A stretch of DNA of 32,000 nt from Gemmatimonadaceae bacterium (GCA_040882285.1 JBBEBQ010000010.1:238147-270146); one strand, 5' to 3'; counted from the first letter of the stretch, positions 25,097 through 32,000 are shown. Made by a program: numbers and translations. The notes: generated from the letters alone by a model not told the origin.

Positions 25097-26758
25097 ATGA
25101 GACGTAACATCTTTCTCGCCGTGGTCGCCGCCGGCATCGCAGGCTGTGTCCCTTCTCCGGCTCCCACTGTCGCACCGGAGCCGGTCGTGCGTGAATCCAC
25201 CGGGTTGCCGTCGGTCGCCGAGCGCCTGGCGAAATACACGCCGGTAACGCTCGCCGCCGACATGTCCGGCCTGAGCGCCGGCGAGCGGCGCATGCTGCCG
25301 CTCCTGATAGATGCAGCGCACGTCATGCACGACGTCTTCTGGATGCAGTCGTACGGCAACCGTGACTCGCTGCTCAGCTCGACAACGGATCCGCTCGCGC
25401 GCCGGTTCGCGGAGCTCAACGTCGGCCCGTGGGATCGGCTCGACGACAACGCGCCGTTCATAGCGGGTATCGGACCGAAGCCGGAGGGCGCGAACCTGTA
25501 TCCGCGCGACATGACCAAGGCGGAGTTCGAGGCCGCGGTCGCGGCGGGCGGCACGCGGGCGGATTCGCTCAAGAGCCTGTACACCATCGTACGACGGGAC
25601 GCGCAGGGCCGCCTCGTCGCGATTCCGTATCATCACGCCTTCGCCGCGCAACACCGGATCGCCGCGCGCAAGCTGCGTGAGGCCGCCGCTCTCGCCGAGG
25701 ACGCGGGGCTGCGGCGCTACCTGACCACGCGCGCCGACGCGTTGCTGAACGACGAGTATCAGGCGAGCGACATCGCCTGGCTGGACATGAAGTCGAATAC
25801 GCTCGACATCGTGATTGGCCCGATCGAGACGTACGAGGACGCGCTGTTCGGCTACAAGGCCGCGCATGAGGGCTACGTGCTGGTGAAGGACAAGGCGTGG
25901 AGCAGCCGCCTGTCGAAGTACGCGGCCATGCTGCCGGCGCTGCAGCGCGGGATCCCCGTGCCCGACGCCTACAAGCAGGAAACTCCCGGCTCCGACTCGG
26001 ATCTGAACGCGTACGACGTGGTGTACGTCGCGGGAGATGCGAACGCCGGCTCGAAGACGATCGCGATCAACCTGCCGAACGACGAGGAGGTGCAGCTCCA
26101 GAAAGGCACGCGCCGGCTCCAGCTCAAGAACGCGATGCGGGCCAAGTTCGACAAGATTCTGCTGCCGATCGCGCGGGAGCTCGTCGTGGCGGATCAGCTC
26201 GGCAACGTCACCTTCGACGCGTTCTTCTCGAACGTGATGTTCCACGAGGTCGCGCACGGGCTCGGCATCAAGAACACCATCAATGGAAGCGGCCCGGTCC
26301 GCACGGCGCTGAAGGAACGCGCGTCTGCGCTGGAGGAAGGAAAGGCCGACATCCTCGGGCTGTACATGATTCGCGAGCTGCACTCGCAGGGCGAGTTGGG
26401 CACGGCGCCGCTCGACGACAACTACGTCACGTTCCTCGCGAGCCTGTTCCGCTCGATCCGGTTCGGCGCGGCCTCGGCGCACGGCCGCGCGAACGTCGCC
26501 GCGTTCAATTTTCTCCAGGAGATGGGCGCGTTCTCGCGCGGCGCCGACGGGAAGTACCGCGTCGATCCGGTGAAGATGCGCCAGGGCGCCAATTCACTCT
26601 CGCGGCTCATCCTCACGTTGCAGGGCGACGGGGACTACGAGGGAGTCGGCCGGTTCAACGAGCGGTACGGGACCATCGGTCCCACGCTGCGCGCGGATCT
26701 CGACCGGCTGCGGACGCGCTCGATCCCCGTGGACATCATCTACGAGCAGGCGCGGTAG
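25097..26758 (+). CDS. M49-like (dipeptidyl-peptidase III-like) zinc metallopeptidase lipoprotein
   Basis: 553 aa from the internal ATG at 25097 (MRRNIFLAVVAAGIAGC, a lipobox). It carries an HExxH pentapeptide (MFHEVAHGLG) followed by EEGKAD. This resembles the short-motif DPP III subgroup, recalled from memory and not searched. Confidence 0.6.
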   Translation: MRRNIFLAVVAAGIAGCVPSPAPTVAPEPVVRESTGLPSVAERLAKYTPVTLAADMSGLSAGERRMLPLLIDAAHVMHDVFWMQSYGNRDSLLSSTTDPLARRFAELNVGPWDRLDDNAPFIAGIGPKPEGANLYPRDMTKAEFEAAVAAGGTRADSLKSLYTIVRRDAQGRLVAIPYHHAFAAQHRIAARKLREAAALAEDAGLRRYLTTRADALLNDEYQASDIAWLDMKSNTLDIVIGPIETYEDALFGYKAAHEGYVLVKDKAWSSRLSKYAAMLPALQRGIPVPDAYKQETPGSDSDLNAYDVVYVAGDANAGSKTIAINLPNDEEVQLQKGTRRLQLKNAMRAKFDKILLPIARELVVADQLGNVTFDAFFSNVMFHEVAHGLGIKNTINGSGPVRTALKERASALEEGKADILGLYMIRELHSQGELGTAPLDDNYVTFLASLFRSIRFGAASAHGRANVAAFNFLQEMGAFSRGADGKYRVDPVKMRQGANSLSRLILTLQGDGDYEGVGRFNERYGTIGPTLRADLDRLRTRSIPVDIIYEQAR

Positions 26759-26763
26759 CCGGG

Positions 26764-27294
26764 ATGGGCGCGAAGCCGGACATGGCCGGATCATCGGACT
26801 ATCGCGCGCCCGACGGGACCGGCATCGGTCACGTGCATCTCAAGGTATCCGACCTCGAGCGGTCGCTCGCGTTCTACGTGGGAGTGCTCGGCTTTCAGCT
26901 CACGCAGCGGTACGGCAAGCAGGCCGCGTTCGTGTCCGCGGGCGGATATCACCACCATATCGGGCTGAACACCTGGCACAGCGAGGGAGGCAGCCCTCCG
27001 TCGCCCCGGACCACCGGCCTGTACCACCTGGCGATCCGGTATCCGACTCGGGCGGACCTGGCCGGAGCGCTCAAGCGGCTGATCGAAGCCGGGATTAAGT
27101 TGCGGGGAGCGTCGGATCACGGGGTGAGCGAGGCCATCTACCTGGACGACCCCGATTCAAACGGTGTCGAGCTCTACTGGGACCGGCCCGAAGCCGAGTG
27201 GCCGCGGACCAGCGACGGCTCGCTCGCGATGAAGACGGAGCATCTGGATCTGGATGGATTGCTGCCGTCCGCTTCCATCGCGGCGCCCTTGTGA
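26764..27294 (+). CDS. VOC (glyoxalase/bleomycin-resistance/extradiol dioxygenase) family protein
   Basis: 176 aa from the ATG at 26764. Motifs: IGHVHLKVSDLERSLAFYVGVLGF, HHHIGLNTW, LYHLAIRYP, VSEAIYLDDPDSNGVELY. Confidence 0.8.
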   Translation: MGAKPDMAGSSDYRAPDGTGIGHVHLKVSDLERSLAFYVGVLGFQLTQRYGKQAAFVSAGGYHHHIGLNTWHSEGGSPPSPRTTGLYHLAIRYPTRADLAGALKRLIEAGIKLRGASDHGVSEAIYLDDPDSNGVELYWDRPEAEWPRTSDGSLAMKTEHLDLDGLLPSASIAAPL

Positions 27295-29835: not shown

Positions 29836-30014
29836 ATGTCCCATACAATTTATCTCGGTCTCGACGCGCACAAGGATTCTGTTATGATCGCCGTCTTCCA
29901 AAGGGGCGGGAGAGACCGAGGGAGGTCACGAAGTTGCCGCACGACCTGTCGCGGCTCGAGCGGTATTTCCGGAGCTTGGCCCGCGAGGGTGCGACGCTTC
30001 GGGCCTGCTACGAG
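29836..30014 (+). pseudogene. IS110-family (DEDD) transposase N-terminal remnant, frameshifted and truncated
   Basis: GGAGGAGG SD, then MSHTIYLGLDAHKDSVMIAV, the typical IS110 N-terminus with the first catalytic D. Homology continues in another frame (REVTKLPHDLSRLERYFRSLAREGATLRACYE), which implies an indel between ~29896 and ~29919. Similarity ends after CYE, so more than 250 aa of a normal transposase are missing. Confidence 0.6.
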
Positions 30015-30176
30015 ACGGTCAACATCCAGGGCAACAGCTACCGCATGCGGCACCACGCCGACCTTCACGCCGAACTCCGCTCCCCCTCCACCACCGGGAG
30101 GGTGTCCGGAGCGTTCATCCTTCAAACGGCGGAACAGCCGCCAGGAGGCCCAGGCGAGCTAAAAGATCGCCCCCTG

Positions 30177-30213
30177 AAAGTGTGCAATTCCAACCCGCAA
30201 AAAGTGTGCAATT
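30177..30213 (+). repeat. Direct repeat AAAGTGTGCAATT x2 with 24-bp period
   Basis: Read directly: exact 13-mers at 30177-30189 and 30201-30213, immediately upstream of a TTGACA hexamer. Confidence 0.85.
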
Positions 30214-30223
30214 TCACCCGCCA

Positions 30224-30253
30224 TTGACACCGGCGCCGTGACGGAACAAGAAT
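30224..30253 (+). promoter_or_regulatory. Possible promoter (TTGACA - 18 nt - AAGAAT) for the island genes
   Basis: A perfect -35 hexamer at 30224-29 and a weak -10-like hexamer at 30248-53. It lies about 100 nt upstream of the 30353 start. By eye only. Confidence 0.25.
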
Positions 30254-30352
30254 TCCTCCACACTCACGCGATCAGGAAAAAACCGGAGGCCGCGGTGCCG
30301 GTCTTTTCCGCTCCTGAACCAACCGCCGCGGAATCCTAATGGAGGCGGAACG

Positions 30353-30862
30353 ATGCGAAACCCGGCACCGACGTTCGCACTCACCTTCGCTGGCACGGCC
30401 CGACCCACATGGTGGTCGGCTCTTGTGCTGCTCGTGGTAGCCACATTCGGAGTCGCGGGCTGCGCCGATCAAGAACCGATTACACCGCCCTCGTTACAAA
30501 AAGCATTAGCACCCTCTGGCCCGGACGCGCTCGGCCACGAAAGAGTCGAGCAGAGTGAACGGCGGGTGACGGAGCTTCCCGATGGGCGTGTCCTTGAGGA
30601 GCTTCATGGAGAACCTGCGTACCGGCACCTCCAGCAACTCATGTCACGGCGACCGGAAGCTTTTGCGAACCTCTCGCTGCCGGCTAAGGGTTACCGCCCG
30701 TCCGGGGAGGTGCTGATCCAAAGAGTTACGCGCCCTCGGCATGCCGCTTTGCGTGGGGACGGTTTTTTATGCTTGCACAATCATACCAAGAGTCGAACTC
30801 GGAGGGGGAAATTATCTTCTGGTCCTGGGACGACGGAGCCCCCGACACTTGGGAAGGCGTGA
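30353..30862 (+). CDS. Hypothetical lipoprotein; the reading frame looks genuine only up to the T6 run at ~30769
   Basis: GGAGG lies 7 nt upstream of the ATG. Signal plus lipobox: WWSALVLLVVATFGVAGC|ADQEP. After 30769 the translation turns into Arg/Ser/Thr/Gly-rich junk (LCLHNHTKSRTRRGKLSSGPGTT) while the -1 frame looks protein-like. Confidence 0.5.
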   Translation: MRNPAPTFALTFAGTARPTWWSALVLLVVATFGVAGCADQEPITPPSLQKALAPSGPDALGHERVEQSERRVTELPDGRVLEELHGEPAYRHLQQLMSRRPEAFANLSLPAKGYRPSGEVLIQRVTRPRHAALRGDGFLCLHNHTKSRTRRGKLSSGPGTTEPPTLGKA

Positions 30863-31293
30863 TCTGGTTCGAGGACTACACTAGAGGCATCGCTGGCACC
30901 AATGAAGCGCAGGTCGACATCTCGTCCACCGAATCGCACGAGCTCGTGTTCTTGGAAAACACATGGGAGTCGGGTGGGGGCGGTGGTGGTCCTGGCGATA
31001 TCGAGCCTATGTGGAATCCGGCACCTTGCGCTACGATCGCCCCAGGGGTGAGGTTCGCAAGCCTTGATGTCGGTTCGACGTGGGTTGCTAGCGGTTACAC
31101 GTTGGCTTCCTCTGCCGGCTGGAGTTGGAGGAGGTGGGGCGGATGCACGGTCGCTGGGGGTGTTGGCGGGTGCGCCGGCGCCGCTACCGGATGCATTTTG
31201 ACCGGTGCGGGCTGGCCCAAGTGCACTGCCGCTTTTTGTGCCGGAGCATTCGTTGGCGCCGCAGTCGGTTGTGGTTTAGCTGAACTAATGTGA
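30769..31293 (+). CDS. Hypothetical protein: acidic Trp-rich domain, G6 linker, Gly/Ala/Cys-rich hydrophobic C-terminal tail. It is either a stand-alone ORF or the -1 frame continuation of 30353.
   Basis: 174-aa ORF whose ATG directly follows the T6 run. EIIFWSWDDGAPDTWEGVIWFEDY...ESGGGGGGPG...WGGCTVAGGVGGCAGAATGCILTGAGWPKCTAAFCAGAFVGAAVGCGLAELM. No family recognised. Confidence 0.55.
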   Translation: MLAQSYQESNSEGEIIFWSWDDGAPDTWEGVIWFEDYTRGIAGTNEAQVDISSTESHELVFLENTWESGGGGGGPGDIEPMWNPAPCATIAPGVRFASLDVGSTWVASGYTLASSAGWSWRRWGGCTVAGGVGGCAGAATGCILTGAGWPKCTAAFCAGAFVGAAVGCGLAELM

Positions 31294-31300
31294 GGACCTC

Positions 31301-31648
31301 ATGCATGCGAACGAAGAACGGACCAACTGCGGACCTGGGCTGACGCGCTGGGAAATGAGCGCTTTTTGGATCACGAGCACTCTAACGGGAGCTTTGTTGA
31401 TGCTCCTCGTTGGGTTCGTGACCCCCAGACTTCTGGCGCCTGTGCTCGTTCTACCGCTGGGTGTTTGGGCCGGCCTGGGATTCCTGGTGTTGGGGCTGGC
31501 TCTGTATCCAGTAATGCGAACCGAGGCCCGGCTCGCCCAGCCAACTCGGGGGTTATCGTTCAAGCGATTTCTGATAGCCATGCTACTCGGTTCCGTAGTG
31601 GGCGCTCTGGTTTTCCTCGCGTGGCGCGCGATACTGGGCGCATTCTAA
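31301..31648 (+). CDS. Hypothetical small polytopic membrane protein (about 3 TM)
   Basis: 115 aa. The SD GAGGA overlaps the upstream stop (TGAGGAcctcATG). Hydrophobic helices: FWITSTLTGALLMLLVGFV, LLAPVLVLPLGVWAGLGFLVLGLALYPV, FLIAMLLGSVVGALVFLAW. Confidence 0.6.
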   Translation: MHANEERTNCGPGLTRWEMSAFWITSTLTGALLMLLVGFVTPRLLAPVLVLPLGVWAGLGFLVLGLALYPVMRTEARLAQPTRGLSFKRFLIAMLLGSVVGALVFLAWRAILGAF

Positions 31649-31814
31649 TCGAAATCGCTCCCAGGTTGCCGAGGTTCCAGACCTCGAAAAGATGGAGCCA
31701 TGAACCCGACGAGGTGGAGCTGCCCCGTTTCGTGGACACCTTCAGACTGGAGAGAAAGGAGGAGTTCACGATGCCGAGATCGAGACCGCCACCCCCGAGG
31801 GATTTGGCTGACAG

Positions 31815-31853
31815 ATGGGCCCGGACTTCACCCGGGCCCATTCTCTTTGTGTG
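31815..31853 (+). terminator. Hairpin with 10-bp perfect GC-rich stem followed by a T-rich tail
   Basis: ATGGGCCCGG (31815-24) pairs with CCGGGCCCAT (31832-41). The loop is ACTTCAC, followed by TCTCTTTGTGTG. It lies about 170 nt after the 31301 gene. Confidence 0.5.
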
Positions 31854-32000
31854 CCCAGCATGAACATCGACCAGGAGGGGGAAGTCCTCTGGGGAGTTGG
31901 TCGCAACGACCTGAGCGAACCGCAAGGCGGTAATCGTGAGAGAGCCGCTGAAAGAAGCGGGTAGCGAGACCTGTGGGGCGACGAACGGGAATCGGATGTT

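Follow-up and report, generated by a model that had tools for sequence, protein, structure and literature searches.

The question raised by positions 30353–31648 of a 32,000-nucleotide (nt) stretch of DNA from a Gemmatimonadaceae bacterium (GCA_040882285.1 JBBEBQ010000010.1:238147-270146; the whole stretch is called the window below) is what a small group of reading frames, none of which belongs to a recognised family, encodes in a patch of lower GC content behind the remnant of an insertion sequence (IS). An initial annotation, made from the sequence alone, had read the region as three genes, among them an exported protein with a Gly/Cys-rich hydrophobic tail and a coupled protein with three transmembrane (TM) segments, and had proposed a candidate membrane-active toxin/immunity pair. 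Comparison with homologous loci reduces the three genes to two—gene 1 (30353–31293), encoding a 313-amino acid (aa) exported protein whose C-terminal tail is a hydrophobic helical hairpin with paired cysteines, and gene 2 (31301–31648), encoding a small 3-TM protein. We favour, at a probability of roughly 0.45, the reading that the two form a new membrane-active toxin/immunity pair of a previously unnamed family. Gene 1, gene 2 and the other features of the island described here lie on the plus strand of the window.

The two upstream open reading frames (ORFs), 30353–30862 and 30769–31293, overlap in different frames and are the halves of one gene. When they are joined at 30763–30768, the resulting 313-aa protein is spanned to 100% by homologues of 313–324 aa that are each encoded in a single ORF; the best of these, identified by searching 5.8 billion proteins, is P0001, which is encoded at the related locus L001 and is 94% identical. 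The frame is broken at a T6 run (30763–30768) that has lost 1 nt relative to the T7 of L001: the sequence reads GGTTTTTTTATG in L001, GGTTTTTTATG in the window and, in frame, GGGTTTTTTATG in L009, where GGGT6 is part of a single frame. The T missing from the homopolymer of the window reflects either a true mutation or an assembly error, and the gene 1 product of the window, the putative toxin, is probably inactive, while gene 2 is intact. The sequence features that had been read from this region are real and lie where they had been placed, but the gene count was wrong and the window's copy of gene 1 is disrupted. The 5′ part of gene 1 (30353–30768, that is, ORF 30353–30862 up to the T run) aligns with residues 1–139 of P0001 and with its relatives and comprises a signal peptide with a lipobox and the first half of a conserved α+β domain. 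Its ATG at 30353 is preceded at a distance of 7 nt by GGAGG, and the lipobox reads VAGC, with Cys37 at 30461–30463, in agreement with the good Shine-Dalgarno (SD) sequence and the lipoprotein signal that had been noted for this ORF.

The position of the break invites the question of whether the split itself is functional, either as a programmed −1 frameshift at T_TTT_TTA that would yield a 169-aa short lipoprotein alongside the full fusion, or as a phase-variation switch operated by the T run. The break does coincide with a homopolymer and with a classical −1 slippery heptamer (30763–30769, in the zero frame of ORF 30353), and the gene 1 copy of L027 is truncated at the same point. However, the split is not conserved, since the nearest relatives, L001 with its T7 and L009 with its GGGT6, carry the gene in a single frame, and the remaining disrupted copies are broken elsewhere and by other means (nonsense codon, deletions). 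Moreover, the 91 nt downstream of the heptamer (30770–30860) fold no better than shuffled sequences (z = +0.54; 139 of 200 shuffles fold at least as well). Because the relatives are in frame and no stimulatory fold follows the heptamer, programmed −1 frameshifting is rejected, and we regard a functional split of either kind as very improbable. As an observation in its own right, gene 1 of L027 (3780–4560) is cut exactly between RGDGFF and M, where the window copy (30760–30771) shifts frame, and both copies retain an ORF of ~170 aa that lacks a signal peptide and starts at the same Met.

Gene 1 is a member of a large, widespread and unannotated family. A profile built from nine relatives and searched in a library of 1.84 billion sequences retrieves 353 cluster representatives (50% identity) at E ≤ 1e-3, 192 of them at E ≤ 1e-10 and 81 at E ≤ 1e-30. 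For locus retrieval, an alignment of 46 sequences was too diverse and the nine-sequence alignment was used instead; scans of genomes and metagenomes gave five and nine loci only, since they depended on two peptide patterns, and the genomic matches are metagenome-assembled genomes of Acidobacteriota and Thermoanaerobaculia. The "GEM" bin label borne by the closest relatives points tentatively to Gemmatimonadota. The family proteins, mostly ~230–340 aa long, share a common layout of Sec signal, α+β domain with a near-invariant GEIxFWSWDDGxxxTWEG motif, Gly linker and ~50-aa tail. Among 115 full-length members, 111 have a Sec-type, signal-like hydrophobic N-terminus. True lipoboxes occur only in the window's subclade, so that the lipoprotein signal of the window copy is genuine but is not a family-wide trait. 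The second half of the domain (GEIIFWSWDDGAPDTWEGVIWFEDY), encoded at 30769–30972, contains the residues that are invariant among close relatives (G152, E153, I154, F156, W157, S158, W159, D160, G162, T166, W167, E168 and G169). In the full-length AlphaFold 2 (AF2) model, the predicted local distance difference test score (pLDDT) reaches ~83–96 at residues 71–130 and 151–210, which are separated by a low-confidence loop (139–147), and falls below 50 in the disordered, Gly-rich linker (residues 211–255) that leads into the helical tail. This linker (30973–31134, with a G6 run at ~30974–30991) is poorly conserved and corresponds to variable alignment columns; both the acidic, Trp-rich domain and the G6 linker that had been described for ORF 30769 are thus present. 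Inside the otherwise variable, low-confidence linker, ~25–35 residues before the hairpin, a motif φ-x-φ-A-S-φ recurs (window 31040–31060), which reads VRFASL here and VTFASW, IQLASS or LQLISD in relatives and may represent a strand or serve for docking or processing.

The view that these proteins fall into no recognised family has stood up to systematic searching. Pfam, NCBIfam, PADLOC and PHROGs gave nothing above noise for both proteins and their relatives, a Pfam hmmscan of the window ORFs and nine family members returned no match at E ≤ 1–10, a sequence profile search of the PDB yielded only collagenase fragments at E ~0.6–0.8, and Foldseek against the PDB gave nothing significant either. 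Nor did the sequence and structure searches connect either protein with a housekeeping or structural family, an outcome that had been named as one that would speak against the proposal. The best Foldseek-PDB match of the full-length AF2 model, to Ups1/PRELID lipid-transfer proteins (E 0.12, TM-scores 0.14–0.29), was judged to be a chance hit; Ups1/PRELID proteins do bind a twin-CX9C hairpin partner.

What, then, is the tail? In the window, it comprises 52 aa plus the stop codon (31135–31293) and is built from G/A/C/V/T with six Cys, as had been recognised, but a disulfide-laddered, close-packed hairpin fits it better than the glycine zipper to which it had been likened. Alignment of 100 tails gives the core W-x2-C-x4-C-x6-C-x3-GP-x-W-x2-C-x4-C-x6-C, in which a GP turn separates two C-x4-C-x6-C elements. 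Covariation in this alignment is strongest for cysteines at mirror-image positions, which tend to be present or absent together: columns 31/65 both carry Cys in 77 tails and neither does in 17 (p = 1.5e-14), and the corresponding numbers are 14 and 86 for columns 39/57 (p = 2e-17) and 19 and 76 for columns 27/69 (p = 3e-16). Columns 36/58 are essentially invariant and columns 43/53 invariant, and variants with four Cys appear, on inspection of the unaligned variant tails, to lose the 36/58 pair together. The number of Cys is even (4, 6 or 8) in 97 of the 100 tails. For every Cys pair, i + j amounts to 94–96, the relation that marks an antiparallel hairpin with the GP turn at its centre, and a model of the tail alone shows two helices at a pLDDT of 90. 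The pattern indicates a ladder of three to four nested, putative disulfides rather than a classical glycine zipper, and we conclude that the small-xxx-small spacing mainly allows the helices to pack tightly enough for three or four such bonds to form. The single continuous helix of the full-length AF2 model is contradicted by the covariation and by the tail-only model, which favour the hairpin. Metal binding is disfavoured, since the cysteines come and go strictly as symmetric pairs, and so is a sorting signal of the exosortase/rhombosortase type, because the arrangement of one TM helix with a basic stretch behind it is absent. The outward-facing residues of the hairpin are hydrophobic or aromatic, so that the isolated hairpin would have to be buried, be it in a membrane, by oligomerisation or by a partner protein.

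Antiparallel helices cross-linked by nested disulfides are familiar from CHCH twin-CX9C proteins, plant α-hairpinins, glycocins and the TM1–TM2 hairpin of Tim17/Tim22, which have one or two disulfides and other Cys spacings. To our knowledge, the C-x4-C-x6-C ... C-x4-C-x6-C repeat occurs in none of them. In the PDB, the tail model comes closest in geometry to the Gly-rich Tim22 TM hairpin (TMq 0.68, root mean square deviation 2.1 Å over 50 columns; E = 8.8, not significant), a resemblance of shape only, as Foldseek E-values of ~8 imply. A profile of the tail alone found no match at E ≤ 1 among the 5.8 billion proteins, in a search that had the low power inherent to a 50-aa domain. The cysteine-ladder hairpin is a new structural motif irrespective of its function.

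Gene 2 encodes a 115-aa inner-membrane protein with hydrophobic segments at residues ~22–40, 46–70 and 89–112; five K/R in the loop at 71–89 predict an N-in, C-out topology. The TGA of gene 1 (31291–31293) shares bases with a GAGGA spaced 4 nt from the ATG of gene 2, which itself follows the stop codon by 7 nt, and on this arrangement gene 2 is taken to be translationally coupled to gene 1. Both the overlap of stop codon and SD sequence and the ~3-TM character of the product had been noted before. Counted across phyla, 17 of the 22 distinct loci that have kept gene 1 or part of it have a 3-TM gene downstream. Partners of 96–131 aa with the same three-segment topology are encoded in the window and at L001, L003–6, L007, L008, L009, L013 and L014, and likewise after gene 1 at L016, L018, L019/20, L021, L022 and L026. 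The co-occurrence in other genomes that had been suggested as a check is therefore found: the two genes are strongly co-conserved in Gemmatimonadota-like and Acidobacteriota loci, and the gap between them measures 5–17 nt in most loci (43 nt at L008, 59 nt at L026).

Coupling as tight as this also suits a stoichiometric complex. In a serious, if rather unlikely, rival account, the pair has no antagonistic function; the stapled hairpin would anchor the exported protein in the membrane or dock it there, and together with the 3-TM partner would build a five-helix (2+3) membrane assembly that serves structure, sensing or some transport-related task in the envelope of the producer. This account draws further strength from the tail itself, whose best look-alike is a Gly-rich, disulfide-linked TM hairpin of Tim22/Tim17-type membrane proteins and which always accompanies the same N-terminal domain, as well as from the loci at which gene 1 occurs without gene 2 and from two Thermoanaerobaculia genomes in which the pair is syntenic between housekeeping genes. 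What it fails to anticipate is the manner in which the two genes decay and diverge.

Gene 2 outlasts gene 1. It is intact beside the frameshifted gene 1 of the window, beside a gene 1 interrupted by a nonsense mutation (TGG to TGA) at L021, beside a 5′-truncated gene 1 at L027, beside gene 1 remnants of only the ~30 last codons at L010/11 and L028/29, and at L012, where gene 1 is absent; P0006, an additional frameshifted gene 1, is a protein-level observation and is excluded from these cases. The orphan copies of gene 2 show a dN/dS (ω) of 0.33, and the clade-wide values are 0.33–0.6 at depth and near 1 for the closest pairs. For gene 1, ω is ~1.1 overall in intact close pairs, with 1.3–1.8 for the tail and 0.5–0.9 for the domain (small counts). 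Between L018 and L019, identity amounts to 67% in the domain, 85% in the tail and 32% in the 3-TM partner, and by this measure gene 2 evolves much faster than gene 1. Survival of an intact gene 2 after loss of gene 1, in at least six independent cases and at an orphan ω of 0.33, is unexpected if both proteins are needed for an envelope complex, and an ω of ~1 for gene 1 together with partners at 32% and tails at 85% identity is unusual for structural parts of an envelope. Two further points speak against such a complex: the cassette is patchy and mobile, adjoining IS3, IS110 and intron debris, and co-translational insertion of the hairpin would expose the invariant Cys pair that flanks the turn to the reducing cytoplasm. 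Of the 31 substitutions between the window and L001, 12 fall into the 156 nt of the tail (7.7% vs 1.0%, p = 2e-6), the islands being otherwise 99% identical. This clustering is suggestive of an exchange of alleles or of diversification in the tail, and not of the even decay of a pseudogene. The tail stretches compared are 31135–31290 in the window and 10784–10939 in L001. The loop variant GWPKC of the window is shared with the allele of L027 and hints at exchange between tail alleles.

The toxin/immunity reading is preferred because it accommodates an exported, rigid hydrophobic hairpin, a coupled, fast-evolving polytopic partner, the frequent loss of gene 1 with retention of gene 2, and a patchy, mobile distribution. 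In the mechanism that we propose, the gene 1 product—a lipoprotein in the window's subclade—would be exported by Sec as an α+β domain joined through the flexible Gly-rich linker to the C-terminal hydrophobic antiparallel hairpin. Small Gly and Ala residues would bring the two helices of the hairpin close enough for three to four nested disulfide staples. The low hydropathy of the tail, combined with the invariant Cys pair flanking the turn, leads us to infer that the tail would be too weakly hydrophobic to halt in SecYEG, and would pass into the periplasm in full and be oxidised there ahead of any insertion into a membrane. The rigid hairpin may then insert into the cytoplasmic membrane from the outside and form a pore or depolarise the cell, the N-terminal domain possibly serving as a carrier or receptor binder, and the gene 2 product would confer immunity by intercepting the hairpin inside the membrane. 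The window copy would accordingly represent a state in which immunity has been kept and the toxin lost, as may also apply to several relatives.

A number of observations weigh against this mechanism. No homology was found that links either protein to toxicity or protection. The mean Kyte-Doolittle hydropathy of the tail, ~1.1–1.2, is below that of classical TM or stop-transfer segments, and among the best 150 family representatives the tails occur only with the GEIxFWSWDDG domain, unlike the situation in polymorphic toxins. Five loci (L002, L015, L017/L024, L023 and L025) carry gene 1 without gene 2 within the available flanks of 3–10 kb, which is unexpected because a toxin would be harmful to its own producer. 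At L014 and L016, both from Thermoanaerobaculia, the housekeeping context of the pair is syntenic, suggesting stable vertical inheritance. Among the loci called, no gene for secretion, lysis or delivery recurs near the pair with any consistency, so that no route out of a diderm producer is visible. The dN/dS estimates are based on small counts, and compared with L001 the window carries eight residue differences in the tail and only one in gene 2, which shows a single substitution. On balance, the original proposal gains from co-conservation, decay asymmetry, fast evolution and the foreign island and loses from a tail that is not a glycine zipper and from the five loci lacking the partner.

The same membrane-active hairpin might also be directed against the cell that makes it. 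In a self-directed addiction or abortive-infection module, the hairpin would harm the membrane of its own cell unless restrained by the 3-TM protein as antitoxin, thereby stabilising a genetic element or killing infected cells. A tightly coupled two-gene cassette in a foreign island with mobile-element remnants alongside, and next to an IS3 element in L003–L005, is what such a module would look like. However, loci with gene 1 alone would be lethal, survival of a lone "antitoxin" is better explained by protection from a toxin arriving from outside, the neighbourhood lacks a conserved regulatory or sensing component, and searches of PADLOC, PHROGs and viral contigs gave no match for the cassette. 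Self-directed killing is therefore considered improbable. A phage lysis or holin function was dropped as an explanation, the scan of viral contigs being empty.

The cassette sits in a recently shared, compositionally foreign patch that is rich in mobile-element debris. This island extends from 29686 to the window end at 32000, by which its right side is cut, and has a GC content of 0.606 vs 0.665 in the rest of the window (z = −3.6), lower than that of every same-sized window elsewhere in the sequence (minimum 0.631). GC at third codon positions is 0.62–0.66 in the island genes vs 0.77–0.90 in neighbouring host genes. The AT-rich shift that had been described from ~29.7 kb onwards is therefore real but milder than the 55–63% vs 77% GC that had been counted by hand. 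At ~29686, directly 3′ of the stop codon of a 565-aa gene, identity to L001 per 100 nt rises from ~75–93% to 97–100%; it amounts to 98.2% over 30018–31999, up to the window end, compared with 83–85% in the housekeeping flanks. The neighbouring genes encode MnmG, MurB, M16 and M49 peptidases, a glyoxalase-family protein and a cupredoxin. Together with the IS110 and group II intron debris described below, the composition contrast and the jump in identity bear out the earlier description of a foreign patch beside an IS fragment.

The IS fragment itself (29836–30227) is a frameshifted and internally deleted remnant of an IS110-family transposase gene. Its reconstructed 94-aa N-terminus, representing the N-terminal domain, matches IS110 transposases with 41.7% identity over 99% of its length (tblastn, E = 2e-14), and annotated IS110 transposases were matched by tblastn in 609 plasmid records, in line with the IS remnant that had been placed upstream of the genes. 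A stretch of 310 bp present in L001 (9355–9664) is deleted in the window, with the breakpoint at 30017/30018, and the remnant is already frameshifted in both copies. A promoter-like site (TTGACA-18-AAGAAT, 10 of 12 positions) lies upstream of gene 1 at 30224–30253, and a terminator-like hairpin with an 11-bp stem, eight GC pairs and a T-rich tail lies 3′ of the two-gene operon at 31814–31842; both are consensus matches only. The 5′ end of a group II intron, or of an intron remnant, occupies 31930–32000. It was recognised through the equivalent stretch of L001 (11578–11749), which matches Rfam RF02001 group-II-D1D4-3 with 105.7 bits (E = 2e-22), and a short reverse-transcriptase/maturase fragment follows 3′ of the start of this match, at L001 11621–11923. 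The interruption of the 5′ part of the intron, from ~31930, by the end of the window agrees with the suspicion that the island continues beyond it. The intron starts ~90 nt 3′ of the strong terminator-like hairpin, and such a position just past a terminator is typical of terminator-targeting bacterial introns. Pfam alone left the IS110 and intron reverse-transcriptase fragments unrecognised; they were detected by tblastn and Rfam instead.

The surroundings of the cassette vary elsewhere as well. In L003–L005 (2018–3132), it adjoins an IS3-type transposase pair (HTH_Tnp_1 + rve), and in L009 (1645–2627) a repressor gene of the BlaI/Penicillinase_R type, which underlines its accessory, variable context. 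Within the window, a stretch of ~500 bp (26750–27256), holding a C-terminal coding region of the glyoxalase/VOC family (PF00903, E = 2.6e-12), is missing from L001, in which the genes for the M49 peptidase and the cupredoxin lie only ~70 bp apart. This amounts to a second indel between two otherwise syntenic genomes.

How does the cassette relate to toxin/immunity systems already characterised? As interpreted here, it works like several of them and is a member of none, as homology tests fail and their delivery machinery is absent. The Cdz system of Caulobacter crescentus consists of the glycine-zipper bacteriocins CdzC and CdzD and the 3-TM immunity protein CdzI (PMC5380434). Common features are a Gly/Ala-rich hydrophobic toxic part, a small 3-TM protein—here putatively an immunity protein—encoded in the same operon, and association of the toxin with the surface of the producer. 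CdzC and CdzD, however, are ~85 aa long, are exported by a type I system (cdzAB), possess extended GxxxG zippers and form aggregates without a cysteine ladder, whereas the gene 1 product is ~300 aa long, has a folded N-terminal domain and would use Sec. No sequence similarity to Cdz was found, and no cdzAB-type type I secretion genes are present among the called neighbourhoods. Gallocin A is a membrane-permeabilising, disulfide-stapled hydrophobic hairpin that requires its intramolecular disulfide for activity (PMC10100652). With this and other class IIb bacteriocins, the gene 1 product would share a low-charge, hydrophobic α-helical hairpin held together by disulfides, and a small gene, which encodes immunity in the case of gallocin, follows directly downstream. 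In contrast, gallocin is a two-peptide bacteriocin of Gram-positive bacteria, 42–60 aa in size, with double-glycine leaders and one disulfide, while three to four nested disulfides are predicted here on a ~250-aa exported protein of diderm soil phyla. PF10439 (Bacteriocin_IIc) matches neither the window ORFs nor the nine family members, no exporter gene, such as one for a dedicated ABC/C39 exporter, was called in the neighbouring loci, and Sec-type signals take the place of a double-glycine leader.

Immunity proteins of E1/Ia-type colicins are ~110 aa long and have three TM segments, and gene 2 thus comes close to them in size and topology. Pore-forming colicins, whose immunity proteins reside in the cytoplasmic membrane (PMC9558359), also employ a hydrophobic hairpin that inserts from the periplasmic side, as is proposed here. 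Their pore domain, though, is a ten-helix bundle (PF01024) accompanied by receptor-binding and translocation domains, and they are released by lysis proteins, whereas the gene 1 product carries a Sec signal and no bundle surrounds its hairpin: Pfam does not detect PF01024, and AF2 gives only the two-helix tail past the disordered linker. In contact-dependent inhibition (CDI), ionophoric CdiA-CT toxins are paired with polymorphic, toxin-specific CdiI immunity proteins that share ~30% identity within groups (PMC11630599). Membrane-spanning helices in the toxin domain and the high polymorphism of CdiI recall the present pair, but the CdiA-CT domains are five-helix bundles that are delivered by CdiB/CdiA and swapped among scaffolds, whereas the tails described here stay with one N-terminal domain and no CdiA or CdiB is present. 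SitA toxins of myxobacteria are lipoproteins delivered by TraAB-mediated outer-membrane exchange (PMC5562445). They share with the cassette a Sec/lipobox lipoprotein as the (here putative) toxin, a downstream gene for immunity and linkage to mobile elements; their C-terminal toxin domains, however, are polymorphic, and the lipobox is restricted to one subclade in the family studied here. One trait of polymorphic toxins, orphan immunity genes or decayed toxin genes, has its counterpart in the window and at L021, L027, L028/29, L010/11 and L012. Beyond toxins, outer-membrane lipoproteins with a Gly-rich, two-helix hydrophobic hairpin are represented by the glycine-zipper 2TM proteins SlyB/Pcp and the Rickettsia 17-kDa antigen (PF05433, PF13488), which differ in that they have neither the conserved six-cysteine ladder nor a 3-TM partner gene. 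Glycine-zipper models of Pfam gave no match, and the only trace, a hit to YiaD_Gzip_OmpA of NCBIfam, scored 6.9 bits (E = 4.5) against a cutoff of 175.

Should antagonism fail, the cysteine-ladder hairpin would still be a well-supported new motif and the two-gene module would merit definition as a family in the databases. The predicted disulfide map, with its outer, middle and turn-flanking pairs, and the pairing with the 3-TM protein are both directly testable. If the toxin/immunity reading is true, hundreds of sequence clusters would constitute a new, unannotated protein family, the disulfide-laddered hydrophobic hairpin would be a new membrane-active fold, and a compact toxin/immunity logic would require the general Sec pathway only. 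Next to nothing is known of antagonism among bacteria in rarely cultured soil phyla such as Gemmatimonadota and Acidobacteriota. More tentatively, the cassette may give a first glimpse of a widespread, unannotated class of Sec-exported antibacterial proteins in these diderms, in which a laddered, Gly/Ala-packed hairpin would act as a warhead that enters the cytoplasmic membrane of the target from the periplasm, a fast-evolving 3-TM protein would provide immunity, and loci with gene 2 only would represent acquired resistance.

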